Virus record (IMG/VR): IMGVR_UViG_3300042879_003909 | Span: 79,772 to 143,771 of that record | Strand: one strand, 5' to 3' | Source: a virus | Lineage: Duplodnaviria > Heunggongvirae > Uroviricota > Caudoviricetes | DNA: 64,000 nt | In this document: one piece after another, positions 6,536 through 26,475 of the stretch | Layout of the letters: every line of letters starts with the position of its first letter | Numbering within the stretch: the first letter of the stretch is position 1 | Translations under genes and position numbers: made by a program | Notes under the pieces: model-generated | What the model was told of the DNA's origin: nothing | The model's input: the letters and a program-made list of their open reading frames with translations, nothing else | Databases searched by the model: none

Positions 6536-6539
6536 ATTA

Positions 6540-8521: not shown

Positions 8522-8525
8522 TCAA

Positions 8526-9374: not shown

Positions 9375-10183
9375 TATTTCTCCATCATTTTGATTATATA
9401 ATCCGTAGTAGCTTCATAAGTATATTTTTCTATAAAAGTTTTAATTCCGTTATTTATTTTATTATTTATCTCTTTCTCGGTCATATTAGCTAATTTGTCA
9501 TATAGATTAAATATATCTTTCACATGACACAAAACACCATATTCTTCGAAATTATCAAAATATGGAACCCAAGGATGATCGTAAATATAAACTGGTATAG
9601 AGTGGCACATCAGAGCTTCATAAATTCTAAAAGATGTTTTTCCATAGCCTCTGGGACATAATGAAAATACGGTTTGATTCATTATATTTAAGTACGAATT
9701 ATAATCATATCTTTTATCAGTAATCACTACATTTGGTTTATCTTTTAATTCATTTGTCATTATTTCTCTAACAGAATGTCTACCATAAATAGCCCCCACA
9801 AAGCTGCACAAAAAGCGTCTTTTTTCAATAGATATATTTGGCGCATTGCAATAAAAATAACTATTTAAAGGTATCGGATAATCCCCCATGCCCCCACTAG
9901 AAAAAATTAACAAATCTAAATCATGAATTTTATTAAGTATACCGTCGTCCCATTGAACTATTGTAAAGTATCTTTTGGATCTATCTAAAGAGTCTAGATA
10001 TCTTTGTAAATCAGATGTATCATCTTGTCCATAGTTTTTAGATATATAATAATTTGTCCAATAAATTGGTAGATATTCTCTTTTAAGTTTTGGTTTATTT
10101 AAAGAAATATATTTTCCAAAATACTCTTCAAAAATCATAATATTTTTAGGCGGATTTTCGTGATTTGTCGAGATATCAAACAT
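9374..10183 (-). CDS. exostosin-like (GT47-like) glycosyltransferase
   Basis: FSLCPRGYGKTSFRIYEALMCHSIPVYIYD exostosin-type C-terminal motif. Confidence 0.5.
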   Translation of the reverse strand: MFDISTNHENPPKNIMIFEEYFGKYISLNKPKLKREYLPIYWTNYYISKNYGQDDTSDLQRYLDSLDRSKRYFTIVQWDDGILNKIHDLDLLIFSSGGMGDYPIPLNSYFYCNAPNISIEKRRFLCSFVGAIYGRHSVREIMTNELKDKPNVVITDKRYDYNSYLNIMNQTVFSLCPRGYGKTSFRIYEALMCHSIPVYIYDHPWVPYFDNFEEYGVLCHVKDIFNLYDKLANMTEKEINNKINNGIKTFIEKYTYEATTDYIIKMMEK

Positions 10184-11066
10184 TAGAAGATCCTATAAAA
10201 AATTTAGATTTTGGTTGCCAGCTAGAATGCCATAAATGACAGGCCATGCTATAAGGTTCTATAAATTGATTTATAAATTCTAAAGATTGATTTTCTCTAT
10301 ATGCTGCCGGAAATGGATGAAAAATTTTTGATGGAAAAATCAATATGTCTTCAGTGCTTTTATTTTTTAAATGATAAAGTATAGCGGCTGTTAATAACCA
10401 AGGCCCGGTCTGATATAGAACTCTTGTTTGATCACACGATATTTCATTTATGTATTTAGTATCATCTACGTTATAAATGCATATTTTTAGTATATGATGA
10501 TTTGGTACAGATGCCATAATGCCATTATTTATTTGAACTGGTTTTTCTAAGCATATACCAGCATAAAATGAAGTAGATTCATGAAGCTTTGCAAAATCGG
10601 TAGAACAGCACAAAAAATCTGTGTCTACGTATAATCCGCCCATTGAATGAAGTATTTCATATCTTAAAACGTCTGATTTTATACCAAAACTTTTGGATCT
10701 TTCAAATATTGCTAAAGATGGCCGATTTAATAAAAATTTTTTAGCTTTATAATCGTCCCATATTTCTACATCAAATCCTGTTTTTTGCTTCCAGTCATCT
10801 ATAATTTCGCAGTACGCTTCTGGCAGTTTACTACCTAGCCATATAAAATGTATAACTTTTGGTATAGGATTCGATGTTTTACTATTTTGATTTTTATAAA
10901 AAATGTTTTTAATTAATTGCCAATCTAAATCTAATTCGGCAAGGTTTATATCAAATAAAGAAGTTTCAACTTGACATCTTTCAAAAAAATTATCTTCATG
11001 ATTTAACATACAGAGCATCTCCCCATGACGCACTTTGCCAAAAAGTATATACATTAGTAAAGCCAA
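10176..11066 (-). CDS. GT32 (Gly_transf_sug / OCH1-like) glycosyltransferase
   Basis: IHFIWLGSKLP and MGGLYVDTDF (DxD) motifs typical of GT32; the true start is probably an internal Met, which reduces the overlap with the upstream gene. Confidence 0.55.
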   Translation of the reverse strand: MALLMYILFGKVRHGEMLCMLNHEDNFFERCQVETSLFDINLAELDLDWQLIKNIFYKNQNSKTSNPIPKVIHFIWLGSKLPEAYCEIIDDWKQKTGFDVEIWDDYKAKKFLLNRPSLAIFERSKSFGIKSDVLRYEILHSMGGLYVDTDFLCCSTDFAKLHESTSFYAGICLEKPVQINNGIMASVPNHHILKICIYNVDDTKYINEISCDQTRVLYQTGPWLLTAAILYHLKNKSTEDILIFPSKIFHPFPAAYRENQSLEFINQFIEPYSMACHLWHSSWQPKSKFFIGSSNV

Positions 11067-11637
11067 AGTTTTTTAAAAATTCATCAATTTCATTAATCAT
11101 AGGGCACCCTTCATAGACCTCATTTCTATTAACTTCTGCAACTATAAAGTCTATGTGCTTTAAATTATTAATGGCACCTTTTAGGACTTTTAACTCATAT
11201 CCCTGAACATCTATAGCTAAAAAGTTGTATTGACTCATGTTTATTTGTTCTTGCTCAACTACGTCGTCTAATTTTTTAATTTGGCATTTTTCTATAGTTC
11301 CATCAAAAATTACAGAAGGATGTTCGGTCAAATGAACTTTGGGCTTTAAAAAAGAGCTAGATGCACCAGAGCCATTTACTATTCCTCCCTCTGTTTGAGA
11401 TATATTAAGCTCTAGTTCTGTTTCCTCGTCTCCCAGTCCAATATTATAGACCTTTTCTGCTGGTAGTAATTTAGATTTAATGATATTGTATAGATGTTCT
11501 TGTGGCTCAAACAAAATTGTATTTGTTAAACCTTCTTTTCTATATTCTTTAATTTCTGATCCGCAAAATGCTCCAACATGAATGATACCACGAACTGGGC
11601 CAAAAGAGTTTGAAATTTGTTCTATGCTAAATATCAT
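10996..11637 (-). CDS. FkbM-family methyltransferase
   Basis: IIHVGAFCGSE and FLAIDVQGYELKVLKGA motifs. Confidence 0.55.
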   Translation of the reverse strand: MIFSIEQISNSFGPVRGIIHVGAFCGSEIKEYRKEGLTNTILFEPQEHLYNIIKSKLLPAEKVYNIGLGDEETELELNISQTEGGIVNGSGASSSFLKPKVHLTEHPSVIFDGTIEKCQIKKLDDVVEQEQINMSQYNFLAIDVQGYELKVLKGAINNLKHIDFIVAEVNRNEVYEGCPMINEIDEFLKNFGFTNVYTFWQSASWGDALYVKS

Positions 11638-12458
11638 ATTAATTTTATCTCCGTATGTGGCGAAAAAACTTGACTAAAATCTAAGTTGTTTAAATTAATC
11701 CTAAGTCCATTAAGATATAGCTGATTCAAATGATCTTCGCAGTATGAATACTGATCGCCCGATCTATTCTGATACTCTAATTGTACTCTATTGTTTGGAC
11801 TATTAACAACACAGCTATACTTTGGGCATGCTTTTATGGCCCCGACCTCAAAGAAGTATCTTTGTAAAAGTCCCTCTAGTTTGTTTGGTGTTTGCGTTAC
11901 TTTTCGTATATTATTTCCTTGATATATTTCATATAAAATATTGTATATCTTTTGTTTATTAAAAATGTGGCCATCAACAGACAAGGGATAATTCCAATAA
12001 CTTTGTGGCAATATATTCATTCTATTCCAAAATAATGAATTATCCGCCTCGGCAAATGCTGGCTGGGGATCATTATACCAAACATCTCCCATTTGTCTTT
12101 TTGCTATATTTAGACCCAGTCTTAACGAATGACAAGCATAACTGTCGTCATCTAGATAAGATAGATCTAAAGATGGAGCACTTCTATAAAATATGTCATC
12201 GTCCGTAAAAAATACAATATATTTATTTTTAGAATTTCTACATGATTCCCAAGTATCTTTATAAAATTCTATTTGTTCTATGGATATAACTTTAGATCTG
12301 TATTCCTTGAATAAATTATTGTATGACTCTTTGTGTTCTTCATCAGCTTTCCATATGATTCTTATCTGATCGCATTGTTTGAAGTTTTGTTCTATGCTTC
12401 TTAGCAATAAATCTAGCTGTAGGGCCCTATTTTTACTAAACACTATAGCAGATATCAT
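11634..12458 (-). CDS. putative GT-A-like glycosyltransferase
   Basis: N-terminus MISAIVFSKNRALQLDLLLRS resembles a GT2/GT-A start; otherwise only weakly supported. Confidence 0.3.
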   Translation of the reverse strand: MISAIVFSKNRALQLDLLLRSIEQNFKQCDQIRIIWKADEEHKESYNNLFKEYRSKVISIEQIEFYKDTWESCRNSKNKYIVFFTDDDIFYRSAPSLDLSYLDDDSYACHSLRLGLNIAKRQMGDVWYNDPQPAFAEADNSLFWNRMNILPQSYWNYPLSVDGHIFNKQKIYNILYEIYQGNNIRKVTQTPNKLEGLLQRYFFEVGAIKACPKYSCVVNSPNNRVQLEYQNRSGDQYSYCEDHLNQLYLNGLRINLNNLDFSQVFSPHTEIKLI

Positions 12459-13443
12459 TCATTTTTTCCTTATTGTCGTAAAACCAATTTAGAGTTAAGT
12501 CCAAGCCTTCGCTAAGCCTATATAGCGGCCTGTAATCTAGCAATGTCTCTGCCCTTGCTATAGATAAGCTTCTTCTGGGTTGACCCTCTAATTTATCGCC
12601 CCTGAATATAAAACCACCATTGTAGCCCATCTTTTTAGCTAATAAGTGAACCAGTTCTCTAATTGTTGTTTCATCTCCCGTGCCTACATTTATTGGACTA
12701 GCTCCAGTTCTTTTATCCATAGATAAAATCAAAGCATTTACGCAATCATCTACGTATAGAAATTCTCTAGTAGCTTTTCCTGAGCCCCAAACTTCTATAG
12801 AGTTTAGCTTATTATTTATGGCATTATCGATTTTTAATATCAGGGCCGGGATAACATGGCTCGTTGTAAGATTGAAATGATCTTCTGGCCCATACATATT
12901 AGCTGGGATAATAACGGTTGAGTTAAATTCATATTCTTTTTCATACGCTATTAACATTTCGTTGATTGTTTTTTTAGCTATGCCGTATGGAGCATTGGTT
13001 TCTTCTGGATATCCATTCCACATATCTTCTTCAGAAAAAGGTGGTGCTGTATACTTTGGATAACTGCATACTGTTCCAACCATAATAAACTTTTTTAATT
13101 TGCCATACTTTCTGCACGATTCAATCAGATTAATCCCCATAGCAAGATTTTCATAAATAAACATTCCCGGGTGTTGTGAGTTAGCTAATATTCCTCCTAC
13201 TCTAGCTGCTGTGTGGATCACTATGTCCGGCTGAGTATGATTGATTAGATAATCGACATATCTTTGATTGGTTAAATCGCATTCTGTCTTTCCAGACAGT
13301 TTTACTATATTGTCATATCCAAGATATTCAAGTTTATTGATTAAATTCTTTCCAAGAAACCCCTGTGCTCCACTAACTAAGATTTTCATCATAATATTTA
13401 TTCCATGAAGATAAAATTGTTTCAGACAAATCTTTATAACCAA
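12436..13443 (-). CDS. fcl: GDP-L-fucose synthase (GDP-4-keto-6-deoxymannose 3,5-epimerase/4-reductase)
   Basis: Rossmann motif VSGAQGFLG; SDR catalytic YGIAKK (YxxxK); extended similarity to Fcl/GMER (HTAARVGGILAN..FIYENL..GTVCSYPK..PYGIAKK..PANMYGPEDHF..HVIPAL). Confidence 0.75.
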   Translation of the reverse strand: MVIKICLKQFYLHGINIMMKILVSGAQGFLGKNLINKLEYLGYDNIVKLSGKTECDLTNQRYVDYLINHTQPDIVIHTAARVGGILANSQHPGMFIYENLAMGINLIESCRKYGKLKKFIMVGTVCSYPKYTAPPFSEEDMWNGYPEETNAPYGIAKKTINEMLIAYEKEYEFNSTVIIPANMYGPEDHFNLTTSHVIPALILKIDNAINNKLNSIEVWGSGKATREFLYVDDCVNALILSMDKRTGASPINVGTGDETTIRELVHLLAKKMGYNGGFIFRGDKLEGQPRRSLSIARAETLLDYRPLYRLSEGLDLTLNWFYDNKEKMNDICYSV

Positions 13444-14425
13444 ATAGAGATAAAAATTGTGCCGCTCTATGATAGTTTGTATGATTTTTTAGAACAATAG
13501 CTTGTCCAGTCTTTGATATAATATTAGCCTGATCCCTGTTTTGTAAGAAATAATCTATTTTTTGTTTAAAGTCTTCTTCGTTATCAGCAAAAACCATTCC
13601 ATCTTGAAATATTCTTTTGTGGGAGGCTACATTATCACCTATACAAAATCCCCCGGCGGCTAATACTTTAAAACTTCTTTCATTTATTTCTATACCGTAT
13701 TCATGAGCATGTGGCTCGCTCAAATTGGGGCATATTTTTGCCGAAACAAAAAGATCTTTAACTTTATTTTCATTAATGTGTCCGCAATATTGGTTTACCC
13801 CAGTCCATCCCTGATTTCCGAAAATTTTAATATTGTATTTATTAACAGGATAACATAGTGGAAGCAAATACCTGTTGATAGTTTGGGCCTTATACGACCA
13901 ATATCCTCCAACAAATCCTATGTCGCACTCTAAAGATGGATCGTAAGAGCCTCCTAAATAAGAGTGAACATCGGCACACAGCATAATTCCGGCCACTGGT
14001 ATACCCGCTTGTATAAAGCGAGAATGTGTCATATTAGCCTGATCTTGTTCATAATGAATGTAAACAAAATTGGGCTGCCCGGTGGTCCTATGTAGTTCTT
14101 CTACGGCCTTAAACTCCGCTTCTGATGTCTGCAAAATGTTAAATCTTGGATCAGTTTTAAAATCTCCACAGTCACCAGCCCTTAATGCCACTTGAAGATG
14201 TGGTCTATTTTTGATACATTTGACGGTAGCCCTATCTAGATTATAAAGCTGGCCAATAAATATGTCTGGCTCAAATTCGTCAAAAACCCTGAAAGCTGGA
14301 TCTTTTACATTATACATCTTTGCTTCAATAGAGGCAATACTGTTAAAAGCATTTATCCAAGCCATTCTTTCAAAATAGTGTGCATGGTAGCCATCATTAG
14401 CTATCAATATTTTTAATTTTTTCAT
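13373..14425 (-). CDS. CgeB-like (DUF3880/Glyco_trans_1_2) GT-B glycosyltransferase
   Basis: C-terminal FKVLAAGGFCIGDN...FADNEEDFKQKIDYFLQN...LKNHTNYHRAAQFL resembles the CgeB family. Confidence 0.4.
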   Translation of the reverse strand: MKKLKILIANDGYHAHYFERMAWINAFNSIASIEAKMYNVKDPAFRVFDEFEPDIFIGQLYNLDRATVKCIKNRPHLQVALRAGDCGDFKTDPRFNILQTSEAEFKAVEELHRTTGQPNFVYIHYEQDQANMTHSRFIQAGIPVAGIMLCADVHSYLGGSYDPSLECDIGFVGGYWSYKAQTINRYLLPLCYPVNKYNIKIFGNQGWTGVNQYCGHINENKVKDLFVSAKICPNLSEPHAHEYGIEINERSFKVLAAGGFCIGDNVASHKRIFQDGMVFADNEEDFKQKIDYFLQNRDQANIISKTGQAIVLKNHTNYHRAAQFLSLFGYKDLSETILSSWNKYYDENLS

Positions 14426-15068
14426 TTTTTAAATCCTTGACAGAGTCTATTTCTACTATTTGCATATTGTGTGGTTCATAACAATGAAAAGTTCCGCCTC
14501 TTTCGATTACCATATTAATAATTTCAAAAACAAATTTTTCATCAATTTTTTCCCAAATAATTTCTTTTAGTATTTTTAATTCTTTGCCAGTAAAAAAAGC
14601 TATTTGACACCATTTCTTTTTTAACCCATAGGATAGATTTGCAACTATATCACCATTAGTAACGATTCCTACCTCTTTATCATGTATTTGATTTTTTGTA
14701 TCAACTATTATGAACGATTTTTCTTTTGGTACATCAATTGTATCAACGTTAAACAATAGGTCGCCATGCATTACCAAAACAGAATCTACAGAATTTTTTA
14801 AGGCTAGTTTGATACCATGACTCGGATTTGTATTTATAAAATCTTTATTTTCTATAAATTTAATCTTGCTATCAGATAGTTTTTTGTTTAATTTACAGGA
14901 CTTATATCCTGTAACAACAGTGATATCTTTTCCAAAAGTTTTATGAACATTACTAATTTGGTAGTCTATTAATGTTTTTTCTTTTATTTTTAATAAAGAT
15001 CTAGGCTCATGGCTTTTCATGCGGGCGCAGACGCCAGCCGCTAAAATGATTGTTTGATTTTTTTTCAT
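14397..15068 (-). CDS. sugar-phosphate nucleotidyltransferase
   Basis: N-terminal TIILAAGVCARMKSHEPRSLLKI matches the NTP_transferase G-loop (ILAAGxGxRx..PK.L). Confidence 0.5.
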   Translation of the reverse strand: MKKNQTIILAAGVCARMKSHEPRSLLKIKEKTLIDYQISNVHKTFGKDITVVTGYKSCKLNKKLSDSKIKFIENKDFINTNPSHGIKLALKNSVDSVLVMHGDLLFNVDTIDVPKEKSFIIVDTKNQIHDKEVGIVTNGDIVANLSYGLKKKWCQIAFFTGKELKILKEIIWEKIDEKFVFEIINMVIERGGTFHCYEPHNMQIVEIDSVKDLKNEKIKNIDS

Positions 15069-15871
15069 ATTCTTTGCTGTAAAATCTTTGCATTTTCGTT
15101 AAAAATTTCCGTAGTCATTTTTAAAGATTGATTTTTTCCCGTCATTCTTACTAGTGATAACGACTCTGGAACGTGTTTCATTATACATACTTTCGAAAGC
15201 CTAAGCCATAAGTCATAGTCTTCGGTGCATCCAATAAAGCCTTTGCTTAATGGGCCATGTAGTCTAACATCATATGCATCTCCATTTTCCAGCAATACTT
15301 TTTCTAGATAGGACTTTCTTATTAGGGCCCCGGAATGAACTATGCATCTTTGCATCAATACGGAAGGACTGTATGGCTCCTTATATTCTCTTTTAATATA
15401 TCCGTCCTGAAATATATCATAGTCTCCATAAACCACCCCAACATTTGGATCACTCATTTGTGCTAGTAGTTTTTCTACCTTGTTGGGATAATAAATATCA
15501 TCTGCATCCAGTATGGCAAAAAAATCAGACGATGACCACAGTCGTTTAATCAATGTATTTCGGGCAGCAGAAGCGCCCTGATTTTCTGTATTTATATATG
15601 TAAAATTTGCGTTTGATATTATGTTAGGCTTTATAGACGTAGCTTGAGATAAAGAATAAATATAGCTCACTATCTCATTATGAGAATTATCTGTTGACCC
15701 ATCGTTAATAATCCCAACATGACAGCGATATGTTTGATTAAGGGCGCTTTTTATAGCATCAACCACCATGTCTCCATAATTGTAGTTAGCTATTATAATA
15801 GAAACTTTATTCATTAAAAATATCCTTCCAGTCTGATATACAATCTGGGTCTTCAGCCCGAAGTGACTCAA
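15065..15871 (-). CDS. glycosyltransferase family 2
   Basis: VSIIIANYNYGDMVVDAIKSALNQTY, INDGSTDNS and ILDADDIYY (DxD) motifs. Confidence 0.65.
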   Translation of the reverse strand: MSHFGLKTQIVYQTGRIFLMNKVSIIIANYNYGDMVVDAIKSALNQTYRCHVGIINDGSTDNSHNEIVSYIYSLSQATSIKPNIISNANFTYINTENQGASAARNTLIKRLWSSSDFFAILDADDIYYPNKVEKLLAQMSDPNVGVVYGDYDIFQDGYIKREYKEPYSPSVLMQRCIVHSGALIRKSYLEKVLLENGDAYDVRLHGPLSKGFIGCTEDYDLWLRLSKVCIMKHVPESLSLVRMTGKNQSLKMTTEIFNENAKILQQRI

Positions 15872-16610
15872 TTCTTTCTAGGAATGTTCTATTGTCTACT
15901 TCTCCATCTTCCATCATCTTGGGGCTATTTCCACCAATCAGCTTGTATAGTGCGGCCTGAATAAGAAATGTCCTGTTGTCTTTTTTGCTACAGTATACCA
16001 ATCGTTTCATTTGATTATTTATTCTATCATTTACTTTGGTAGTCAAGCTCTTAGATGGTATATCCGCTTCATCAAAAAATACTATCCAGCCATTTTTGCA
16101 AAAGCCAAGAGAATCATCTATTGCTTGATAGATATCATAGTCTGCGTCTGGTGGCATCAATATATTGTATTCAACAATCTTTTCATTTTTCGATAACGAT
16201 TCTAGTAGTTCAAAAATTTCTAAATTATATTCGGGCCTGTCATTTACCACAATAATAAATTTTCTAGAATAGTCTTGTTCATATAATGATTCAACTATTG
16301 ACTTAAAGGTATCCATATTATAATTAAATTTAATAATAATAGATAGCCTTGGCGAAACTTCTTTATTTACTACTTCTACAGCCTTTTGAATATCGTTTTC
16401 GCAATATTTTTCTAGCCATTCTACTGGCCTTCTTGCGTTACAAAATCTATTAAATGTAAAATAAGATATACCATCTTCTACTTCGGAATTATTATCTGGA
16501 TTTAATTTTTGTACACGCTTTAGCCTACAATCATACTGTGTATCTATGCCTTTAAAGCTAACATATTCGGCAAAAACACAGTCTTTACAAGAAAATTTAA
16601 TTTCGCTCAT
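15807..16610 (-). CDS. putative GT2-like glycosyltransferase with an N-terminal Cys-containing extension
   Basis: LSIIIKFNYNMDTF...IIVVNDRPE resembles a GT-A N-terminus; the rest is unassigned. Confidence 0.3.
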   Translation of the reverse strand: MSEIKFSCKDCVFAEYVSFKGIDTQYDCRLKRVQKLNPDNNSEVEDGISYFTFNRFCNARRPVEWLEKYCENDIQKAVEVVNKEVSPRLSIIIKFNYNMDTFKSIVESLYEQDYSRKFIIVVNDRPEYNLEIFELLESLSKNEKIVEYNILMPPDADYDIYQAIDDSLGFCKNGWIVFFDEADIPSKSLTTKVNDRINNQMKRLVYCSKKDNRTFLIQAALYKLIGGNSPKMMEDGEVDNRTFLERIESLRAEDPDCISDWKDIFNE

Positions 16611-17023
16611 TCCAATGTGCCCACTATAATTAAAGTAAAGTTTTTAATTTGCTTTTGATTAATTTTAAATCCGAGTCTATTTAATATATCAAAAATAAAA
16701 TCAGAACTAATAAAACTCTTTATTGATTGACCGCTGTGGAAAAAACAATCATTGAAGTCATTAAATGTTATAGAGCCCGTAGTCAACATATGAGATAATA
16801 GCTCGATATCTGTCAAATATAGTATCAATTTGCCGCCCTTTTTGATTTTAGAAGCGATTAATTGTAAAATATTTTCAATTTCTTTTAATGAAAATGAATG
16901 AAGTATATCGTCTACCATTATTTCTGTAGCTTCACCGTCATCAGCTATGATATTAAGTGAATTTGGACTATTTACCCATAGGCTATCTTCGTGGTCGTTG
17001 GTGTTACTAAAAGCTATTTTCAT
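16607..17023 (-). CDS. hypothetical protein
   Basis: ORF only. Confidence 0.3.
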   Translation of the reverse strand: MKIAFSNTNDHEDSLWVNSPNSLNIIADDGEATEIMVDDILHSFSLKEIENILQLIASKIKKGGKLILYLTDIELLSHMLTTGSITFNDFNDCFFHSGQSIKSFISSDFIFDILNRLGFKINQKQIKNFTLIIVGTLE

Positions 17024-18006
17024 GAATACAAAACCTCCTCAAAAACTGTGTTCCATTTATTTATAAACTGATTTAAATTATATTTTTCTTTAATTGTTTT
17101 TTGTGCATTTAAGCCAAGCTCTCTTGCACGACTCGGATTGTCTAGTAATTCTTGGCAGTATTTTTTTAACTCATTAGGGTTATTGCTAATTAGTCCGTTT
17201 TCTCCATGCTGTATAATTTCTGGTATCATACATGTAGCTGTAGATACAATAGCACAACCACACGCCATAGCTTCCATCATAGACATTGGTACGGGCGAAT
17301 GAATCGAAGTATTCAGAAATATGCTTGATTTATTATAAATATCTTTTAGTTCATCCAATGTTGTCGCCGCCTCCGAAAGCCCGGGATTTTTTCCCGCTAC
17401 TCTGATTGGTTTTTGTTGACTGGAATTAAAACTAACTACATCTTTCCATAGCTCCCATCCACAGGCCCAGTCTCGACTTGACCAATAATTCACAACAGAT
17501 AACAGCACATTATCTCTTTCTTTTTGTTCGTCTAGCCAAAAATCGGTATCCATACCATGATTAATAAACCTAGAATTATTTTTATTATAGCCCCAGCTAT
17601 TCATATTAAATTCTGAGATAAATGTAGTTAAATCTACTTTTACAGACTGAAACGCATATTTTTGCTGATCTAAATTGTATCTGATATCGGGCAAGACATG
17701 ACAGTGTCTAATGATTGGTATATTACAATACTCTTGAATATCTTGAGCTACATTAATTCTTTCATCAGACGTATGCACCAATATAAGGTCAAACTCTTGA
17801 TGATATGGTATTTGATTAATAATGTGATAATTTTCTGGCACTGGGGCGTATGAAGAATCCCACTCCTTTCCATTTTTTAAACAAAAGAAATTATGCCCGG
17901 TTTTACATAGATTGGATTCATATCTTTCGTGGGTTGCTCCAACAACTATAATATTTAGGGGTTTTTCTCTAGTTGCCTGTCTAATCAAAGATTTAAGTAA
18001 GTCCAT
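17020..18006 (-). CDS. GT4-family (GT-B) glycosyltransferase
   Basis: SMMEAMACGCAIVST...GENGLI (E-x7-E type motif). Confidence 0.6.
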   Translation of the reverse strand: MDLLKSLIRQATREKPLNIIVVGATHERYESNLCKTGHNFFCLKNGKEWDSSYAPVPENYHIINQIPYHQEFDLILVHTSDERINVAQDIQEYCNIPIIRHCHVLPDIRYNLDQQKYAFQSVKVDLTTFISEFNMNSWGYNKNNSRFINHGMDTDFWLDEQKERDNVLLSVVNYWSSRDWACGWELWKDVVSFNSSQQKPIRVAGKNPGLSEAATTLDELKDIYNKSSIFLNTSIHSPVPMSMMEAMACGCAIVSTATCMIPEIIQHGENGLISNNPNELKKYCQELLDNPSRARELGLNAQKTIKEKYNLNQFINKWNTVFEEVLYS

Positions 18007-19102
18007 TCAATATCTCCCGAATAATTTTCCCTACTGACTGATGACTAAATTTTTCTTTAGTTTCTTTAGAAAGTTTTTCTTTATTGCTTATAAGATAATC
18101 TTTATTTTCATAAACCGATCTCATGGTTGATCTTAAAGACTGTACATTGATATCTTCCCACATTTCTGCGGAACTTTGAATTTCTGGGAGGGCTTGCTGC
18201 ATACCAAAACAATCATCTATGCTAGACTGAATTCCGCAAGAGTTACTCATCGCATAAGTAGCTGTACCAGTATTATTGGTATAAATTAAATTTAATCCTA
18301 GAGCCTGCGCCTCTAATGCAGGAATGCAACAGGCTTCTCCGTGACTGGAACAAACAAAAGTATGACATTGATTAAGGATAGATATATAATCATCATTTTT
18401 CATATGTCCACAAATAACAGAAATGTTTTGGTATTTTTTTCTTATTTTAAGCCCGGACTTTATATATTCATTTAGTTTATTAAATTCTGCCATACAATGA
18501 TCGCTATTCATGTTTGAACTTAGTTTAATAAATAAATTAACCGGTTCTGCTGGATGAAACTCTGTATAGAATGCCCTTAGTAAGGCCGACAGATTCTTTC
18601 TATTATTCCACTCTCCAATAAAGCAAAAATTAAACACATTTTCTAGCTCGGATATCGACGCTGTTCTTTTGTTAATATTGTACTTTTCTGGATCAATGCT
18701 GTATGTTACAACATCAATAGGTATTGATACTTGGCTACGTATGGATGCTTCTTTGTTTTGATCGCACATTACCCAAGCTCTGTCTAGTAAATTTATATAT
18801 TTATGCCATTTACTAAAATAAAAATCTTGTGATTCAACACAATAAAACCCAACATTTTTAATTTTGGAATTATAGTAATAATGCTTTGGTAAACAGTGCT
18901 GAATACAAATACTTGCCCCTGTTACTTGTTTTTTTTCAAGGCTTTCTATGATTGGGTTAGTGCCTCTTTGTGGTCCGAAAGAAATAGCTCTTGGTACAAC
19001 ATCAATACCAACAGAGTGCATAGCTAAAATATTTGCTTCAGCCGCAGACCCCCAGCCCCCTACATCTTTATAATTCCCTATGTATAAAACTTTCATAAAC
19101 AA
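17993..19102 (-). CDS. GT4-family glycosyltransferase
   Basis: CSSHGEACCIPALEAQALGLNLIYTNNTG motif; N-terminus MKVLYIGNY...GGWG. Confidence 0.55.
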   Translation of the reverse strand: MFMKVLYIGNYKDVGGWGSAAEANILAMHSVGIDVVPRAISFGPQRGTNPIIESLEKKQVTGASICIQHCLPKHYYYNSKIKNVGFYCVESQDFYFSKWHKYINLLDRAWVMCDQNKEASIRSQVSIPIDVVTYSIDPEKYNINKRTASISELENVFNFCFIGEWNNRKNLSALLRAFYTEFHPAEPVNLFIKLSSNMNSDHCMAEFNKLNEYIKSGLKIRKKYQNISVICGHMKNDDYISILNQCHTFVCSSHGEACCIPALEAQALGLNLIYTNNTGTATYAMSNSCGIQSSIDDCFGMQQALPEIQSSAEMWEDINVQSLRSTMRSVYENKDYLISNKEKLSKETKEKFSHQSVGKIIREILNGLT

Positions 19103-20757
19103 TTCATCCTATGAGATTCCCATGTATTATAATATTCTCTTAGACTTACTATCTGCTTATAAGCATCTTGGTAGCTAAAAGCTTTCATTTTTAAAGCATC
19201 TTTATTATGGCTTTCATTAATATAATAAGAGCTTAAATTTTCTACTGTTGCCTTATATGTTAATTCTTTAAGCAGTCTTCTCCATAAAAAGCTGCCTAGC
19301 AATTCTGGCTTACATAAAACTTCGCATATTAAAAAATTAGCTTGATCGAGCGGTGACTTTAGCGATTCGTCTATTGCTTTTGGCTTTCTTATATCTGCCG
19401 GGGACTTCCATGTTTTACTATCTTCTTTTATATCACAAGACTTGAAATAGTCTATCCATCTAGAGGCGGTTTTATCCCAATTATAGCAAGATAATGTTTT
19501 TATGTACGTGTCTCTACCCATCTTTGTCAATTCTTCTTTTGTTTTTGACGTAAGATTATGTAAGATGCTAATAAAGTCCTCATTATCCGGCACTGCTCTT
19601 TTACATCCTGTCTCTGGCTCTAGAACAAATTCTTTGACCTTTATAGGAATAGCATTGATATTTTTAATAACAGAAGACATGGCCGAATAATCGATAGAGC
19701 ACAATACATTGCCACATTGGGCCGCTTCTAGTTGAGGCATACCAAAGCCTTCGCTGTTGGCGTATTGTACATAGATATCGAATACATTGTAGACTTTAGC
19801 TAATTCAGTTTCAGACAAAGGGTTATTAATGCCGCAAATACCAGCGGTGAAATTATTACATTTATTACAATATTTTACAATATCGCTAAAAAATGAACAT
19901 GTGATGTCGCTACATTTTGAACACTTGTAAGTAAATAAAACCTTATTAGTAAGACCGTTCTGTATTAATAAATTAGGTATATCCCATCCCACATCGGGGA
20001 AAGATGTATGACAATAAAGATAAACATCCTCTCTAGATGATTGGTCCAAGAATTTTCTAAACGAATAAAATAAATCTGGGTATAATTTGCGGCGCTGATT
20101 ACGCATGACTGTGCCAATAATATATGGGGCACCGTCCATACCAAAAGCACTTCTTAGTCTTGCCTTATCTTTAATTGGATAAAAATTATTAGAAGCACAC
20201 GGAGAAGCCACGGTAACAAAATTATTAAACTGCCCCTGTTTTCTTAATGTCTCTATACCAAACTCTGAATATGTAAAAATAGCATCGGCTTTAGAGTAAG
20301 TATCTATCCATTCTATGTTTTGTGGTTCGGCATCTACCGTAGGCATTAATGCTAGGTTATAAAAATTTCTAAATGGAGAACTTTGCTCAAATGAAACCAT
20401 CCAAAAATCTCTAATATCAAAAACAAAATTTGGCTTATAGGATAATAAGATAGAATTAAAAGAAAACTCCCCAAATTCTGCTGTGGGCGATTTTTTGTAT
20501 GCTTCAAATTCCGGCGTATTATTCTTCGGCTTATTAGCAAAAACCGTCCAAGGAACATTTTTGATCTTTGGATCATCTTCGCTACAATAGCATGCCAGCT
20601 CGGCAATTTCAAAGTCTTCAACTTGATTTAGTCTACTTAATACTTCTTTAGAATAAACAGAGTATCCAGTCGGTAGCTGTGAAAATTCTGTTACCATTAG
20701 TATCTTTTTTTTGGCCATAAAGTCTCCAATAAATAAAGGCCCGCTTTCACGGGCCAA
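19093..20757 (-). CDS. GT4-family glycosyltransferase with an inserted Cys-rich (zinc-ribbon-like) segment and a long C-terminal extension
   Basis: KKILMVTEF N-terminus; EGFGMPQLEAAQCGNVLCSIDYSAM motif; Cys cluster CSKCSDITCSFF..YCNKCNNF. Confidence 0.55.
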   Translation of the reverse strand: MARESGPLFIGDFMAKKKILMVTEFSQLPTGYSVYSKEVLSRLNQVEDFEIAELACYCSEDDPKIKNVPWTVFANKPKNNTPEFEAYKKSPTAEFGEFSFNSILLSYKPNFVFDIRDFWMVSFEQSSPFRNFYNLALMPTVDAEPQNIEWIDTYSKADAIFTYSEFGIETLRKQGQFNNFVTVASPCASNNFYPIKDKARLRSAFGMDGAPYIIGTVMRNQRRKLYPDLFYSFRKFLDQSSREDVYLYCHTSFPDVGWDIPNLLIQNGLTNKVLFTYKCSKCSDITCSFFSDIVKYCNKCNNFTAGICGINNPLSETELAKVYNVFDIYVQYANSEGFGMPQLEAAQCGNVLCSIDYSAMSSVIKNINAIPIKVKEFVLEPETGCKRAVPDNEDFISILHNLTSKTKEELTKMGRDTYIKTLSCYNWDKTASRWIDYFKSCDIKEDSKTWKSPADIRKPKAIDESLKSPLDQANFLICEVLCKPELLGSFLWRRLLKELTYKATVENLSSYYINESHNKDALKMKAFSYQDAYKQIVSLREYYNTWESHRMNCL

Positions 20758-21099: not shown

Positions 21100-22221
21100 C
21101 TAAATTTGACAAACTTTATCTACAATAAAACCATCTTTGCTATCTGAAGGTTTTCCAATAAGTATCACAGTATTTCCTTCGTATAGCATTTTTTTATACT
21201 GATCATAAGAATCTGGAAAAACAATAACGGAATCTAAAATAGCACTATGGTCTGAAACAGACAAGAATGCCATTTTTTTACCCTTATTCTTTCCCTCTTT
21301 CTTAATAACATACTCTCTCAATCCATTAATAGTAACACCAAGGTTAGCCGGGCCTTTAACAATTCCCTGATAAATTTCCTTACATTCTGCATTGATTATA
21401 TCAGTATCACCCATATCGCTAGCTGCACATGTCATCGGAATGCCCATATAGTATTCTTCTTTCTCTGCTATCCAAGAAGCGTGATCATTTAGATCTGTTG
21501 GAGGATTATCAAGTAGCTTTTTTATGCCCATTAGTATGTCTAATCTCGGTTTATTAACTTTAAAATTATGTATCAAAACGTTAATATGGTGAGATAAAGA
21601 TTCTGTATACTCAACATTATTCTTAATAAAATCTACCTCTCTTTGCGTGAGTTTTTTCCATGCATCATACTCAAATAACATCCTGTTTCTAGAAACAGTG
21701 TTTAGTTTATTATTAAAAATACCACACGATATCATGGCTATAAAAGCCCGCTTATTTATTTTATTAGCAAAATTACATAGTACCGATATCCAATCTAGCT
21801 CTTTAATAGTATTAGGCAGTAGAGACAATATTTTCTCTGATTCGGACTCGCCAATATCTTTCACTAAAGAAATACCAAAATAGATTTTATCTTTATGTAT
21901 AGTAAAATCTTTATATAAATTACCAAGCCTCGGTGGCAATACATCTACATTATGTATCTTGCTATCATATATCAAGCCCCGAATTTCTTCTTGAGTATCG
22001 GGCTTACGTCTAGCATGATTTAAATAAACTTCATAGAACTTGTGAATACTTTTTGCCTTACATAAAGCGCTCCAATAAGCGTTGAGTCCATAAGATACAG
22101 AATGTGAATTAGATACAGCTATGCCATCACCATAAAATATATGGTCTTCTGATCGCACCTCTATATCCATAGTTGGAATTATTCCTATTTTATTACATCT
22201 AATAATTTTTGCAGTATGCAT
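21100..22221 (-). CDS. dnaE: DNA polymerase III alpha subunit, C-terminal fragment, beginning with a 38-aa C-intein
   Basis: Begins MHTAKIIRCNKIGIIPTMDIEVRSEDHIFYGDGIAVSN / SHSVSYGLNAYWSALCKAKS, i.e. a C-intein (..HNF..GI.VSN) followed by the conserved DnaE (FNK)SHSxAY..YQTAWLK region; the rest resembles DnaE C-terminal/OB domains. Confidence 0.75.
   Translation of the reverse strand: MHTAKIIRCNKIGIIPTMDIEVRSEDHIFYGDGIAVSNSHSVSYGLNAYWSALCKAKSIHKFYEVYLNHARRKPDTQEEIRGLIYDSKIHNVDVLPPRLGNLYKDFTIHKDKIYFGISLVKDIGESESEKILSLLPNTIKELDWISVLCNFANKINKRAFIAMISCGIFNNKLNTVSRNRMLFEYDAWKKLTQREVDFIKNNVEYTESLSHHINVLIHNFKVNKPRLDILMGIKKLLDNPPTDLNDHASWIAEKEEYYMGIPMTCAASDMGDTDIINAECKEIYQGIVKGPANLGVTINGLREYVIKKEGKNKGKKMAFLSVSDHSAILDSVIVFPDSYDQYKKMLYEGNTVILIGKPSDSKDGFIVDKVCQI
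22108..22221 (-). mobile_element. split intein, C-terminal half (Int-C) of the fractured dnaE
   Basis: 38 codons ending ..GIAVSN with a +1 Ser; pairs with the N-intein at 23105-23389. Confidence 0.7.
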
Positions 22222-23072
22222 TCAATATCTCCTAGAATGTCTGATTCCCAAAATCTTATCAATTTTATATTATTATTTTTACAAAATTTATTTTTCTTAA
22301 TATCTCTAATGGCATTTCTTTTTTGCGTAGATGTTTTCGGTCCATCTTTGTATATCTTGGGATTACTGTGCCAATAATCTCCATCTATTTCTATACATAT
22401 ATTATAGTCAATGAGATAAAAATCAAAAGACCAATATTCGATTCTTTTTTCTTGTTCGTAGTTTATGTTATTGGCTTCTAATAAATCTTTAAATTTTCGA
22501 CATGGTAAAGTATCATTTTGTTTAAAAATGCCTTCTTTGATTAATCTTAATGTATTCTCTCTTAATTTCTGTTTAGTTTCTTCGGTATGTTTATGTCCAG
22601 TATGTCCATGTACAGATCTTTTTTTAGCTGACTCGCTTTGTTTTTGTTTAGTTTCTACTGACGGCTTTCTACCTATGGCTTTATCTGATATTCTTTTCAT
22701 TAAGTCAGAATTTTCTTTATTCAATCCGTTGTTCCAAGGTATTTTTCCAAACATCGGATTATTGCTTCCGACCCTATTGGTTTTTGCTTCTTGTGACCAT
22801 TTTTTTACACCTTCATTTAAACCACATGCTATCTTTTTATATCTAATATTAGAGCCATCTAATATGACCGTTAGTTTTTTATTGCACGCACCGCAAGGAC
22901 AGCTTGGGCCATATCCAAAATAGTCTGTTAAGGATAACTCATGACATTCTTCTATATGCTTTTTAAAACATTGAGATTTATAAACCCCTGTCCCTCCATA
23001 TTGTTTTACCATTTCTGATAAAGAATAATTACATATTTTACAAAACTCCCATTCTTTCTTTTCTATAATCAT
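22185..23072 (-). CDS. free-standing homing-endonuclease-like protein between the dnaE halves (zinc finger + NUMOD-like repeat + DUF559/Vsr-like endonuclease domain)
   Basis: CKICN...CFKKHIEECH zinc finger; GHTGHKHTEETKQKLRENT (NUMOD3-like GxxHSEETKxKIS); C-terminal DFYLIDYNICIEIDGDYWHSNP...IKLIRFWE (DUF559-type). It lies exactly between the Int-N and Int-C ends. Confidence 0.6.
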   Translation of the reverse strand: MIIEKKEWEFCKICNYSLSEMVKQYGGTGVYKSQCFKKHIEECHELSLTDYFGYGPSCPCGACNKKLTVILDGSNIRYKKIACGLNEGVKKWSQEAKTNRVGSNNPMFGKIPWNNGLNKENSDLMKRISDKAIGRKPSVETKQKQSESAKKRSVHGHTGHKHTEETKQKLRENTLRLIKEGIFKQNDTLPCRKFKDLLEANNINYEQEKRIEYWSFDFYLIDYNICIEIDGDYWHSNPKIYKDGPKTSTQKRNAIRDIKKNKFCKNNNIKLIRFWESDILGDIECILQKLLDVIK

Positions 23073-23101
23073 TAGTATGCCTCCTGTTAATAAAACCCAT
23101 A

Positions 23102-25786
23102 CTAATTATTATACACAATAATTTCATAACCTTGGTCTAAAATTTCATACAATGGCCGTGTTATAAAATCAGAGCATAGAAATTTATGATCTAGGGTACA
23201 TTTAATACTATGGCCCGAATCTGTTTCTATTTCATATACTTCTTTTTCGCCATTATGTATTATGTCTATTACTTCAACATAATGATCTTGTCCATTTTTA
23301 TTTGGTGCTAATATCATATCTCCTAGATTTAATTCGCACAACATCTTAATTTCATCTTTAGTATTAACCGTTGTCGTCGGGTCCAAGCATCGATTAAACG
23401 AATATCTGTTTGATGCTTCAATCCATTCAAAGATTTGTTCTGCCTCTTCTTTAGTTACAATGCCCTTTTTTTCAGCACCTTCAATAAAAGATATTTTAAC
23501 TTTAGCCATAAGATCAGCAAGTTTTTTACCCATAGCTTTACGCAAGTTATCGGCTTCTTGCTCTGTAAATCCAGCTATTTCTCTAGCTATCATCATACTT
23601 TGTTCTTGATAAACTAAAACGCCGTAAGTATCTTTCAGAATAGGCTCTAGGGCCGGATGAAAATACTTTACCTCATCCTTACCAGACTTGCGATCAATAT
23701 AGTGTTGTGTCATAGACTTGCCTTCAAAATAGGCATTCAGTGTGCCCGGCCTAATTAAAGCTACAAGGGCCGATCCTTCTTCCAGCATATGTGGCTGTAA
23801 TTTTTTAGTCCATGTTTTACCAAGCTGTGACTCAAGCTGAAAAACTCCTCTTGTATCGCCTTCGCACAATAATCTCCAAGTCTCTACGTCTTCCCAGTTG
23901 TCCAAGTCTATATTGGCATACTTAGCTATTTTATCAATCTTGCTTAAAATATCAACACCAAGAATATCAAACTTTACCTGACCAATAGATTCAAGATCGC
24001 CCATTTCAAAACCGGCTACCGGATTGCCTTCACTGTCGCGTACCATCGGACAAATATCCGCTAATGGAGAAGCGGCAATAATAATACCGGCAGCATGCTT
24101 GCCCTGCGATTTGTAGGTGCCTTCAACCTTAATTGCTTTTTCAAAAACATCTGCTAGATCGCCAATTAGTTTACCGTCTACTAAAGAGCACCACTTCTCT
24201 AATTTTTTAGGATTATTAATAAGCGCCCATCTAATAATAGACTTATCTTCCATTTCTTCTAATTCGTCAGAGATTTCAGCCTCGTCTGGAATATACTTTG
24301 TTATTTCATTCATTTCAGTAAATGAAACGATATCTTCTACTCTTAATACTTCCTTGACTGCTGATCTGCCCTGAAGTCTACCAAATGTAGCCATTTGAGA
24401 AACATTTTCATGTCCATATGTTTGTTTGATATATTCGATAACTTCGTCTCTATGTTCGGCTGGAACATCTACGTCAATGTCCGGCAAGCTACCCTTTCTA
24501 GAGCTATTATAAAATCTAGAGAACAAAAGCTTAAACGGAATAGGATCAATAGAAGTAATACCAACTAAATAAGATATTAAACAGCCAGCAGCACTTCCAC
24601 GGCCCGGGCCCGGTAGCCAGCCTTGTTTTCTTACCCAGTTGACAATATCTTGAACAATTAGAAAATAGCCAGATAGTCCAGCGTCTTTAATAATTTCCAA
24701 TTCTTCTTTGATTCTGTTTTCATATATGCTTTTAGATTCTTGTGTAGAGACTTTACCCTTTTTCACCAGTAGTTCTTGCCATCCTTTACGGCAAAGATGT
24801 TTTAAATATTCAAACTCGCTCATTCCATCGGGACAACTAAAATGCGGCAAAATAGGACTATTTAGAATGTTATATTCTTCGCACTTATCAACAATCTTTC
24901 CAGCATTATCTATCTCTTCCTGTGTATGCAAAGCTAATATTTCGCCCGGCGAAGGTATGTGATAATTGTCTGAAATAAAAAATCCTTTCAGTGGGACCTT
25001 TTCTTTCTTTTGTATCGCCCTGTTGATTTGTGGCATAGTCTTTTTTAACGCAGAACACAATAGAATTCTTTGATATACTGCGTCCGACTTATCTACATAA
25101 TGACTATCCGCAGTAGCTACAGTTTGAATATTATACTCGGCTGCTATTTCTCTCAAGCATTGGCCTATTACTTTTGCTGCATGTAGAACTTCTTGATCTA
25201 TTAGCTGAATCTCTAGATAAAAATCATTTCCAAAGATTTCTTGATGCAGCTTTATAACCTCATAACAAGACTCTTTCCAGTCTGGCCTTAAATAAGCCCG
25301 GGCTTCTTCATATGATTCTGCATCAAAAACATTATTAGAAAAGAATAAAGATTCAGATATAGCCGTGCCCGGATGACCACTAATGCAAATATGATTTCCA
25401 TTGCCAAGATTTTTCTTCATGATTGAATAGTCAATACGTGGCTTATAATAAAAATTATCTGGGTGATAACTTTCTGAAACACAGCGAATTAATTCCTTCC
25501 ATCCTTGTAGGTTTTTAGCTAATATAACAACGTGATTTAAGCCTTTATTTTCGGATGATCTATCTTTGGCATCTTTGCTTATATAAAACTCGCAACCCAG
25601 AATGGGTTTAATCCCACCCTTTTTACACTCGGAAAAAAAGTCTACGCAGCCAGATATGGAGCCATGATCGGTCAAAGCACAAGCCTTGTATCCATACTCT
25701 TTACATCGCTTGACCATGTCTTTTGGCTTACTATAACCGTCTAATAACGACAAGTGACTGTGGTTATGGAGAGACGCCCAATTCAT
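23102..25786 (-). CDS. dnaE: DNA polymerase III alpha subunit, N-terminal fragment (PHP + polymerase core), ending in a 95-aa N-intein
   Basis: PHP domain MNWASLHNHSHLSLLDGYSKPKD...ALTDHGSISG; polymerase core; the ORF terminates with ..ASNRYSFNR / CLDPTTTVNTKDE...TLDHKFL...EIIVYNN*, i.e. Hint blocks A (C-LD-T) and B (TLDH) with a stop after the N-intein. Confidence 0.85.
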   Translation of the reverse strand: MNWASLHNHSHLSLLDGYSKPKDMVKRCKEYGYKACALTDHGSISGCVDFFSECKKGGIKPILGCEFYISKDAKDRSSENKGLNHVVILAKNLQGWKELIRCVSESYHPDNFYYKPRIDYSIMKKNLGNGNHICISGHPGTAISESLFFSNNVFDAESYEEARAYLRPDWKESCYEVIKLHQEIFGNDFYLEIQLIDQEVLHAAKVIGQCLREIAAEYNIQTVATADSHYVDKSDAVYQRILLCSALKKTMPQINRAIQKKEKVPLKGFFISDNYHIPSPGEILALHTQEEIDNAGKIVDKCEEYNILNSPILPHFSCPDGMSEFEYLKHLCRKGWQELLVKKGKVSTQESKSIYENRIKEELEIIKDAGLSGYFLIVQDIVNWVRKQGWLPGPGRGSAAGCLISYLVGITSIDPIPFKLLFSRFYNSSRKGSLPDIDVDVPAEHRDEVIEYIKQTYGHENVSQMATFGRLQGRSAVKEVLRVEDIVSFTEMNEITKYIPDEAEISDELEEMEDKSIIRWALINNPKKLEKWCSLVDGKLIGDLADVFEKAIKVEGTYKSQGKHAAGIIIAASPLADICPMVRDSEGNPVAGFEMGDLESIGQVKFDILGVDILSKIDKIAKYANIDLDNWEDVETWRLLCEGDTRGVFQLESQLGKTWTKKLQPHMLEEGSALVALIRPGTLNAYFEGKSMTQHYIDRKSGKDEVKYFHPALEPILKDTYGVLVYQEQSMMIAREIAGFTEQEADNLRKAMGKKLADLMAKVKISFIEGAEKKGIVTKEEAEQIFEWIEASNRYSFNRCLDPTTTVNTKDEIKMLCELNLGDMILAPNKNGQDHYVEVIDIIHNGEKEVYEIETDSGHSIKCTLDHKFLCSDFITRPLYEILDQGYEIIVYNN
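23105..23389 (-). mobile_element. split intein, N-terminal half (Int-N) of the fractured dnaE
   Basis: 95 codons starting at Cys1 (CLDPTT) and containing the block-B TLDHKF motif; the gene stops immediately after it. Confidence 0.75.
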
Positions 25787-26475
25787 TTAATATACAACTC
25801 CTGCCCAGCAAAGGCTTTTTCAAACTTAGTTTTTGTCGCTAGTGTTCTATGATATTTCATAAACTTAATAAAAATATTTGCAGTATTCTTTACGTCTTGC
25901 AACGCATCGTGGGCATTTTCTATATTTGCTGATGGGAGTCCTAGATATTCTGATATCGCGGTTAGACTACGGCTTTTTATCTTATCGTTATCTTCAGTCC
26001 ATGTAAAGACCAAATCCATCAAATCTACTTTGAAAATTTTGTTAAATAGGTTCGGCCTTCCTTCTTTGTCCACTTGGCCATATTCTTTGCACAATCTATG
26101 TACAATAGGTAAGTCAAATCCATTAATGTTATAGCCGCACGGAATAGGTGCCGTAAAATCACTTTTCTTGTAATTAAATCTATTTACAAACTGAACAAAG
26201 CTATCCCAAGCTATTTTTAATGGCGTAGCATTAGCAAGCCCTTCTCTAGTTTTTCTGGTTATTTCTAAAGCTTTATCTTCAACTGGATCAAGGCCCGCAG
26301 CCACAGCTTTTTCGTCATCTAGGATTGGACGAATTTCTATGTTGAATATGCCGTTGGGCTCAATTGTTAATTTTCTGCTATGCAGAGCAATTGCTGCTAT
26401 CTGTGTAGGCTGACATTTATGAGGATTAGCACTTCCTGTTTCAAAGTCAAAAATTATGAATGTATTATAGTTCAT
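25783..26475 (-). CDS. dnaQ: DnaQ-like 3'-5' exonuclease (DEDDh; Pol III epsilon-like proofreading subunit)
   Basis: Exo I FIIFDFETGS; Exo II GYNINGFDLPIV; Exo III HDALQDVKNT. Confidence 0.8.
   Translation of the reverse strand: MNYNTFIIFDFETGSANPHKCQPTQIAAIALHSRKLTIEPNGIFNIEIRPILDDEKAVAAGLDPVEDKALEITRKTREGLANATPLKIAWDSFVQFVNRFNYKKSDFTAPIPCGYNINGFDLPIVHRLCKEYGQVDKEGRPNLFNKIFKVDLMDLVFTWTEDNDKIKSRSLTAISEYLGLPSANIENAHDALQDVKNTANIFIKFMKYHRTLATKTKFEKAFAGQELYIK

Follow-up and report, generated by a model that had tools for sequence, protein, structure and literature searches.

We describe here a dnaE gene, encoding the alpha subunit of DNA polymerase III (Pol III), that is carried in pieces by a viral genome (Caudoviricetes; IMG/VR record IMGVR_UViG_3300042879_003909, positions 79,772 to 143,771). 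The full 64,000-nt stretch analysed is referred to as the window, and loci with L numbers are related contigs that were compared with it. Three successive open reading frames (ORFs) occupy the minus strand at 23102-25786 (894 aa), 22185-23072 (295 aa) and 21100-22221 (373 aa). The first encodes a 799-aa DnaE extein followed by a 95-aa N-terminal intein fragment (IntN) and a stop codon, the second a free-standing endonuclease, and the third a 38-aa C-terminal intein fragment (IntC) joined to a 335-aa DnaE extein that begins SHSVSY. Each has its own ribosome-binding site (RBS), and the first 37 nt of the IntC coding sequence are shared with the endonuclease ORF, an overlap that spans 11-61 nt in every related cassette examined. 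The three reading frames all differ, so that neither read-through nor a single frameshift could join the ORFs, and a fusion by either route is ruled out. The predicted spliced product is 1134 aa long. An original prediction made from the sequence alone had proposed this three-ORF layout, with two distinct dnaE halves that end and open in Hint fragments, Ser at position +1 and a joined product of about 1130 aa, and it stands in each of these respects (Table 1).

By sequence, the joined halves are a split intein of the HINT superfamily with class 1 residues. A profile search of the two halves, suggested with the prediction, bore out their assignment: IntN scores 34.5 bits with TIGR01445 (intein N-terminal region; cut-off 24.5) and also matches Pfam Hint, IntC scores 17.7 bits with TIGR01443 (intein C-terminal region; cut-off 15.6), and the residues of blocks A, B, F and G are present. 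A PDB search with the fused halves recovers two split inteins, Npu DnaE and gp41-1, the single sequence giving E ~1e-6 to gp41-1, and a profile of seven lineages extends this to E=1.1e-19 for gp41-1 (profile 2-133 to chain 5-128) and E ~1e-16 for Npu DnaE. The break between IntN and IntC aligns with the natural gp41-1 split, LYVKE/MMLKK (a slash marks a junction throughout), which is the canonical split, or endonuclease-insertion, point. An AlphaFold2 (AF2) model of the fused intein, made from the single sequence with no alignment, reached a predicted local distance difference test (pLDDT) score of 45, and a homologue search with the fused 133-aa intein returned three IntN-only matches, missing known relatives as well.

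The residues required for splicing are shared by lineages that are 42-76% identical overall. Position 1 is Cys in six of the seven, including the window (CLDPTT), and Ser in L054; the His of block B (TLDH, IntN residues 65-68) is invariant, its first position being Thr in all but L018, which has Ser; and in blocks F and G, which read MDIEV...DHIFY...AVSN/SHS in the window, D114, H122, N133 and Ser+1 are invariant, as are the DIEV of block F and the closing Ser-Asn. Both L054 (3668-3958) and L055 carry a natural Ser1/Ser+1 split intein (RYSFNK/SILADT...). IntN carries a net charge of -11, and residues 1-17 of IntC sum to +3; such acidic and basic charge complementarity is a reported trait of split inteins in nature (Dassa et al., 2009; PMC2677866). 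We infer that the two DnaE halves are joined by trans-splicing.

The exteins make up a complete DnaE protein. In the NCBIfam DnaE models, the first ORF accounts for positions 1 to ~749-751 and the third takes over at ~748-751, and the PHP, polymerase core, finger, HhH and OB domains are all present and colinear once the intein is removed. Alignment of the joined exteins to full-length DnaE, which had been proposed as a check of the insertion site, is gap-free over the junction against both the Taq and the Escherichia coli Pol III alpha subunits (ysfnr/shsvsygl versus YGFNKSHSAAYAL). The site is FNR/SH with Ser at +1 (NRYSFNR/SHS) and lies within the conserved FN(K/R)/SH motif. It had been placed at or near the split site of the cyanobacterial DnaE inteins. 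The native Npu DnaE junction is AEY/CFNK (PMC3759424, from which it was taken because a PDB search with the extein-flanked intein did not reveal the native exteins), so that the insertion point in the window is four residues downstream and its +1 residue is Ser, not Cys; 'near' is therefore accurate, 'at' is not, and the intein is not the cyanobacterial allele. The closest DnaE among GenBank phages is 36% identical, and a megablast search of GenBank phages with the 4.7-kb region of the window gave no match.

Table 1. Features of the fractured dnaE locus, in window coordinates
Feature	Coordinates	Strand	Basis and remarks
dnaE N-extein, residues 1-799, ends EASNRYSFNR	23390..25786	-	Pfam PHP, DNA_pol3_alpha, DNA_pol3_finger; NCBIfam DnaE positions 1 to ~749-751; dN/dS (ratio of nonsynonymous to synonymous substitution rates) 0.03-0.05 versus L046
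IntN, 95 aa, CLDPTT...TLDHKF...IIVYNN	23105..23389	-	TIGR01445 34.5 bits; Pfam Hint 31.3 bits; Cys1 and T-x-x-H; net charge -11
TAG stop of IntN	23102-23104	-	Sequence
GTGTATAAT motif, resembles a -10 promoter element	23108..23116	-	Kept in window, L018, L049, L050 and L054
RNA hairpin, core stem UAGUAUG/CAUACUA	23062..23115	-	Minimum free energy -12.9 kcal/mol, z = -3.5
Endonuclease RBS (AGGAGG); start codon	23080-23085; 23070-23072	-	Sequence
Endonuclease gene, 295 aa	22185..23072	-	NUMOD3, DUF559/Vsr and 3R3P matches; dN/dS 0.09-0.15
Endonuclease EDxHD (Vsr-like) nuclease domain, aa ~187-295	22188-22514	-	C-terminal to Cys/His clusters and NUMOD-type repeats
C-half RBS (AGGAG), 7 nt before ATG, within 3' end of endonuclease ORF	22229..22233	-	Sequence
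IntC, 38 aa, MHTAKIIRCNKIGIIPTMDIEVRSEDHIFYGDGIAVSN (MHTAK...IAVSN)	22108..22221	-	TIGR01443 17.7 bits; block F DIEV...H; terminal SN
dnaE C-extein, 335 aa, SHSVSYGLNAY (Ser+1), stop included	21100..22107	-	Pfam HHH_6, tRNA_anti-codon OB fold; NCBIfam DnaE from ~748-751
Tract ~99% identical to L046: cassette and adjoining extein (~40 nt upstream, 8 nt downstream)	22100..23431	-	Mismatch counts

The free-standing endonuclease and its putative control elements

The middle ORF had been described as a zinc-finger, NUMOD- and DUF559-like protein, and the description fits what was found. NUMOD3 scores 22.9 bits (cut-off 20.4) over aa 134-171, DUF559 scores 20.5 bits against a cut-off of 20.6, the DUF559/Vsr matches thus being marginally under their cut-offs, and two N-terminal Cys/His clusters are kept in an alignment of 40 homologues. 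A phmmer search matches PDB entry 3R3P, the catalytic domain of I-Bth0305I, which is the type member of the EDxHD homing endonucleases (PMC3239194). The same structure is the best Foldseek match in the PDB (template modelling score 0.78-0.79) to an AF2 model of the protein with a pLDDT of 88, followed by 3HRL, a DUF559 protein, and then by E. coli Vsr (1CW0, 1VSR). Residues E208, D217, E228, D230, D232, H235 and D257 are invariant among the 40 homologues, and D217, H235, D257, E228 and E208 align with I-Bth0305I positions that are mutated in 3R3P. Both its sequence and its predicted fold thus place the protein among the EDxHD (Vsr-like) homing endonucleases.

The dN/dS of the endonuclease is 0.09 relative to L046 and 0.15 relative to L049, and that of the exteins is 0.03-0.06 relative to L046; polymerase and endonuclease are therefore both under purifying selection. 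A search of metagenomic proteins for the endonuclease family gave 364 matches, the best 120 of which are nearly all ~293-330 aa long, matched near full-length and 47-69% identical. By comparison, no full-length member was found in 50,697 GenBank phage records, where tblastn gave four partial hits, and no phage deposited there has the cassette. All seven relatives whose context was examined, ranging from 99% to 49% identity, sit in the same dnaE slot, and these seven adjoin ssb wherever the flank is long enough. This several-hundred-member metagenomic clade therefore appears to be dedicated to a single dnaE site. That dedication and the signature of recent cassette transfer described below give indirect support to a predicted site-specific cleavage of the uninterrupted target allele.

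The start of the endonuclease gene lies in a predicted RNA hairpin that spans the IntN stop codon and the endonuclease RBS and start codon, and none of 200 shuffled sequences folds as well. Equivalent hairpins with compensatory changes occur in L049, L050, L052 and L054 (z -2.6 to -4.8), such that the structure is supported in five of seven lineages. Hairpins upstream of the endonucleases of fractured genes were also reported by Dassa et al. (2009; PMC2677866), and the one in the window may likewise act as a control element. Just upstream of it is the motif GTGTATAAT, which overlaps the last IntN codons in the window and is non-coding in L054; from its sequence it may act as a promoter. An Rfam scan of the window gave no matches, and a group I intron was dismissed as an alternative on this basis.

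Allele states and spread of the cassette

Relatives with an uninterrupted dnaE or with a contiguous intein had been raised as a possibility, and both were found. Among 45 related viral dnaE loci from IMG/VR (35-60% identity), 40 are uninterrupted at the exact insertion point, reading RY[SA]FNK/SH in 22 and RYLFNA/SH in 18; the empty allele of the L024 type has the sequence ...AGATATTCTTTTAATAAG/TCTCACGG.... The other five comprise the fractured L018, then L011, whose intein is contiguous and sits at this very point, and three truncated loci. Thus 40 empty alleles, one contiguous and one fractured demonstrate that all three allele states exist at one site. The fractured layout is present in L018, in L046-L053 and in L054-L056.

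The 18 empty alleles of the second type (L001-L010, L013, L028, L037-L039, L042-L045) read RYLFNA/SHSISY, with Ala rather than Lys or Arg at -1, and no member of this clade was seen with the cassette. The L011 intein (9946-10761) is a contiguous 272-aa element with an HNH motif (RYSFNK/CVSG...VTSN/SHAVSY). It was considered as a possible direct ancestor of the split intein of the window, but the similarity between the two is weak, ~27% identity over block B, and it may have entered this dnaE site independently.

The sister genome L046 is 85-90% identical to the window at the nucleotide level, and the cassette is far more similar than that. From IntN to IntC, 12 of 1282 nt are mismatched (0.94%), compared with 98/1203 (8.1%) in the N-extein and 169/1008 (16.8%) in the C-extein; the Fisher P value is 5e-20 for the first contrast and 5e-49 for the second. 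The cassette is thus ~9-18 times less divergent than its flanks, and the boundaries of the contrast fall at the cassette edges, the first downstream mismatch lying 9 nt beyond the end of IntC. Nucleotide-level constraint was rejected as the cause, since the contrast falls at synonymous sites, where divergence (dS) is 0.044 in the cassette and 0.42-1.09 in the flanks. The pattern is that expected of recent copying with short co-conversion tracts, as in homing. L046 further differs from the window by a 214-aa Methyltransf_21 gene (L046 411-1055) between the dnaQ-like gene and dnaE, which is absent at the corresponding place in the window (~25786).

Other breaks in dnaE were observed in the related genomes. 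A second fractured cassette is present in L046-L048 at PGPGRG/SAAGC (L046 2245-3480) and consists of a 90-aa IntN, a free-standing 278-aa ORF with weak PD-(D/E)XK and T7 endonuclease I-like matches, and a 35-aa IntC. The window has no break at this site (24595/24596, DnaE G397/S398) and represents the empty allele, whereas L037, L039 and L043 have an in-frame insert of ~335 aa there, the N-terminal region of which is intein-like. A further split of dnaE, near residue 620 and without an intein, is found in many relatives, the gap holding a dnaQ-like exonuclease gene (L018 7653-8479; L011 7860-9334; L050 2824-4171; L052 2150-3284) and in some an HNH ORF or other small ORFs as well. The dnaE of the window is continuous here, and its dnaQ-like gene is immediately upstream of dnaE at 25783-26475. 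A fourth site in dnaE, at about residue 685, is occupied in L018 by a contiguous HNH intein (~8664-9430; IRPG/CVSGDTKV...VVHN/CTKA) and by inserts in L016, L021 and L034. With the second cassette, the dnaE gene of the sister genomes is in three to four pieces; in L050 and L051, where the split near residue 620 is combined with the two intein cassettes, it is in four. With four sites or more, the DnaE of this phage lineage is a hot-spot for inteins.

A wider reading of these data is that the cassette is actively homing and has recently moved between genomes whose dnaE flanks differ by 8-17%, and that the polymerase is built from two, three or four polypeptides, with at most two distinct split inteins, whose free-standing nucleases also differ, and one intein-free junction that holds a dnaQ-like gene. 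We regard this as an evenly balanced proposition. If true, it would provide population-level evidence for a mobility step that Dassa et al. (2009) proposed but could not observe, and a natural case of several, presumably orthogonal, trans-splicing reactions building one essential enzyme.

Gene context, proposed mechanism and alternatives

The neighbours of the fractured gene encode Ssb, a dnaQ-like exonuclease, and DnaG-like and DnaB-like proteins, in agreement with the ssb, dnaQ, dnaG and dnaB neighbours named in the original prediction. The window also has genes for a PD-(D/E)XK nuclease, a deoxynucleoside monophosphate kinase, a UvsX-like recombinase, a class II ribonucleotide reductase, a thymidylate synthase-like protein and PhoH, as well as numerous glycosyltransferase genes, and nearly all of the genes are on one strand. 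Related contigs of up to 243 kb are classed as viral in IMG/VR. Given this gene content and the classification of the relatives, the source is probably a large uncultivated phage.

Several other features of the window were recorded. A second intein is present in the 583-aa PhoH-like ORF (38455-40206, minus strand), where a contiguous element of ~337 aa (~38980-39990) interrupts the P-loop at the junctions GPAGSGK/AQPLD...FVQTHN/TAIATG and contains two LAGLIDADG motifs (Pfam LAGLIDADG_3); with Ala1 and Thr+1 it may be non-canonical (class 3-like). The sole tRNA gene is tRNA-Ile (anticodon TAT) at 55857-55933 on the minus strand. Glycosyltransferase-like genes fall in two long runs of ORFs (~3000-20757 and 48539-53054, minus strand), an amount that is unusual for a phage replication region, and the synteny of ssb with glycosyltransferase genes is kept in L046 and L052.

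The explanation that best accounts for the locus, and which we consider very likely, is that of a fractured dnaE with a split intein and a homing endonuclease in a probable large phage. The intein occupies the FN(K/R)/SH motif of the Pol III alpha subunit and is broken at its canonical endonuclease-insertion point by the free-standing EDxHD (Vsr-like) endonuclease gene. On this model the transcript yields three proteins, each translated on its own. Through its acidic IntN tail, DnaE(1-799) would then associate with the basic IntC at the head of DnaE(800-1134), the two fragments would fold into a HINT domain, and trans-splicing through Cys1, the block B T-x-x-H, the terminal Asn and Ser+1 would yield the 1134-aa polymerase. 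The endonuclease would cut intein-less dnaE alleles of co-infecting relatives near the FN(K/R)/SH motif, and repair of the cut allele would copy the whole IntN-endonuclease-IntC cassette.

Several observations weigh against parts of this explanation. The recent-transfer signal comes from a single genome pair, the window and L046, and in comparison with L049 the cassette and its flanks are similarly divergent. No structural phage genes are present within the window. The hairpin was non-significant in L018 and L056 in the folding test of the seven lineages, and the exact late-promoter element TATAAATA (T4/Aeh1-type) is absent from the window, which has GTGTATAATAAT instead; in the loci of Dassa et al. 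(2009; PMC2677866) this element was found in the hairpins of 10 of 16, and so is not strictly defining. In addition, relatives tolerate the intein-free split of dnaE near residue 620. Covalent joining is therefore not strictly needed for a split Pol III alpha subunit, and non-covalent assembly is possible in principle.

The cassette could instead be fixed and immobile, homing having been lost and the endonuclease kept for some other reason, such as its overlap with the C half or a domesticated function. We consider this unlikely, although in every lineage examined the endonuclease ORF runs over the RBS and the start codon of the C half, which could hinder its loss, and the comparison with L049 is consistent with vertical descent. 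The selection noted above acts on the whole 295-aa protein, whose catalytic residues are invariant, and an immobile cassette accounts poorly for this, for a drop in divergence from L046 that matches the cassette edges, or for the presence of the cassette in some genomes and its absence from their close relatives.

A second alternative holds that the intein halves act solely as a non-covalent dimerization module, the DnaE fragments working without formation of a peptide bond. The intein-free splits near residue 620 in L018, L011, L050 and L052, each with a dnaQ-like gene in the gap, lend it some weight, as does the fragmented phage NrdA that is joined by interaction domains (PMC3045599). It is nonetheless improbable: docking alone would need none of the splicing residues, all of which are kept across the divergent lineages, and gp41-1, the closest solved relative and itself from a fractured gene, splices rapidly in vitro.

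The stop codons and foreign ORF that physically interrupt dnaE might also mark a decaying pseudogene hit by a mobile element, with a host polymerase used in its place, but the low extein dN/dS, the intact DnaE domains and the persistence of the same arrangement in lineages whose DnaE proteins are 42-72% identical make this very hard to credit. An assembly or sequencing artefact might conceal a single unbroken intein whose endonuclease domain is in frame, and the apparently metagenomic origin of the window and the contiguous HNH intein of L011 at the same site might be cited for it. It is, however, extremely improbable: the ORFs use three frames, the endonuclease has its own RBS and start codon, and assemblies made independently (JGI, ENA, Logan and IMG/VR), at 49-99% identity, repeat this pattern of stop, restart and overlap.

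Relation to known systems

A fractured dnaE with a split intein, a free-standing homing endonuclease and a probable phage source is of a known kind. A precedent in marine metagenomes had been anticipated, and it is provided by Dassa, London, Stoddard, Schueler-Furman & Pietrokovski (2009; PMC2677866), who described three fractured dnaE loci (DnaE-1, -2 and -3) in short assemblies from the Global Ocean Sampling metagenomes, together with Vsr-like endonucleases and a proposed phage origin. Those loci share with the window the order of N-part plus IntN, free-standing endonuclease and IntC plus C-part on one strand, as well as the DnaE host, and the IntN and IntC of the window (95 and 38 aa) fall inside the published ranges of 88-105 and 33-54 aa. 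The DnaE-2 endonuclease is Vsr-like as in the window, but is at least 315 aa long rather than 295 aa; the comparison with DnaE-1, -2 and -3 is based on their published description. The earlier loci were mostly truncated, with no DnaE locus among the five complete ones (PMC2677866). The later papers searched cite fractured genes mainly as a source of tools for split-intein work, and we found among them no account of a fractured dnaE in a phage genome.

Among characterized inteins, gp41-1 (PDB 6QAZ, 6RIZ) is the closest solved relative, having the same split point and also deriving from a fractured gene, but it differs in its host protein (the gp41 helicase rather than DnaE), in its penultimate residue (His in THN, compared with Ser in VSN here) and in its low pairwise similarity. 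The cyanobacterial Ssp and Npu DnaE inteins (PDB 1ZD7, 2KEQ, 4KL5) resemble the one in the window in their DnaE host, the FNKSH region, an acidic IntN and basic IntC, and a terminal SN, but they are inserted four residues upstream, use Cys+1 and have a cellular host. In cyanobacteria the two dnaE halves are encoded at separate, unlinked places on the chromosome and are not known to have an endonuclease gene between them.

The endonuclease resembles I-Bth0305I (PDB 3R3P) in its C-terminal Vsr-like domain, its catalytic set of a Mg-binding Asp, a general-base His, a neighbouring Asp and an extra acidic residue, and an N-terminal NUMOD-type region. I-Bth0305I, however, is encoded inside a group I intron of a phage recA gene, whereas the enzyme in the window is free-standing within a split intein; the clade to which the latter belongs also has the two extra N-terminal Cys/His clusters and NUMOD3 rather than NUMOD2, and its catalytic-domain identity to I-Bth0305I is ~24%. 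The nrdA/mobE locus of Aeromonas phage Aeh1 is similarly an essential phage gene split by a free-standing homing endonuclease and reassembled after translation, although it is intein-free and assembles non-covalently (PMC3045599), whereas the window has full split-intein halves.

What is new is the gene context, the apparent dedication of the endonuclease clade to a single site and the evidence for recent transfer of the cassette. The window holds a complete fractured dnaE inside a block of replication genes, the earlier DnaE examples having been incomplete, and empty, contiguous-intein and fractured alleles can now be compared at one insertion point. The sister pair, in which the cassette is far younger than its flanks, bears on the origin and spread of split inteins. 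These loci also provide natural Ser+1 split inteins related to the very fast gp41-1, one lineage with Ser1, and a second split intein in the same protein; the Ser1/Ser+1 and two-intein sets could interest engineers in search of orthogonal or cysteine-independent splicing pairs. The picture established by the earlier systems is thereby extended rather than changed.

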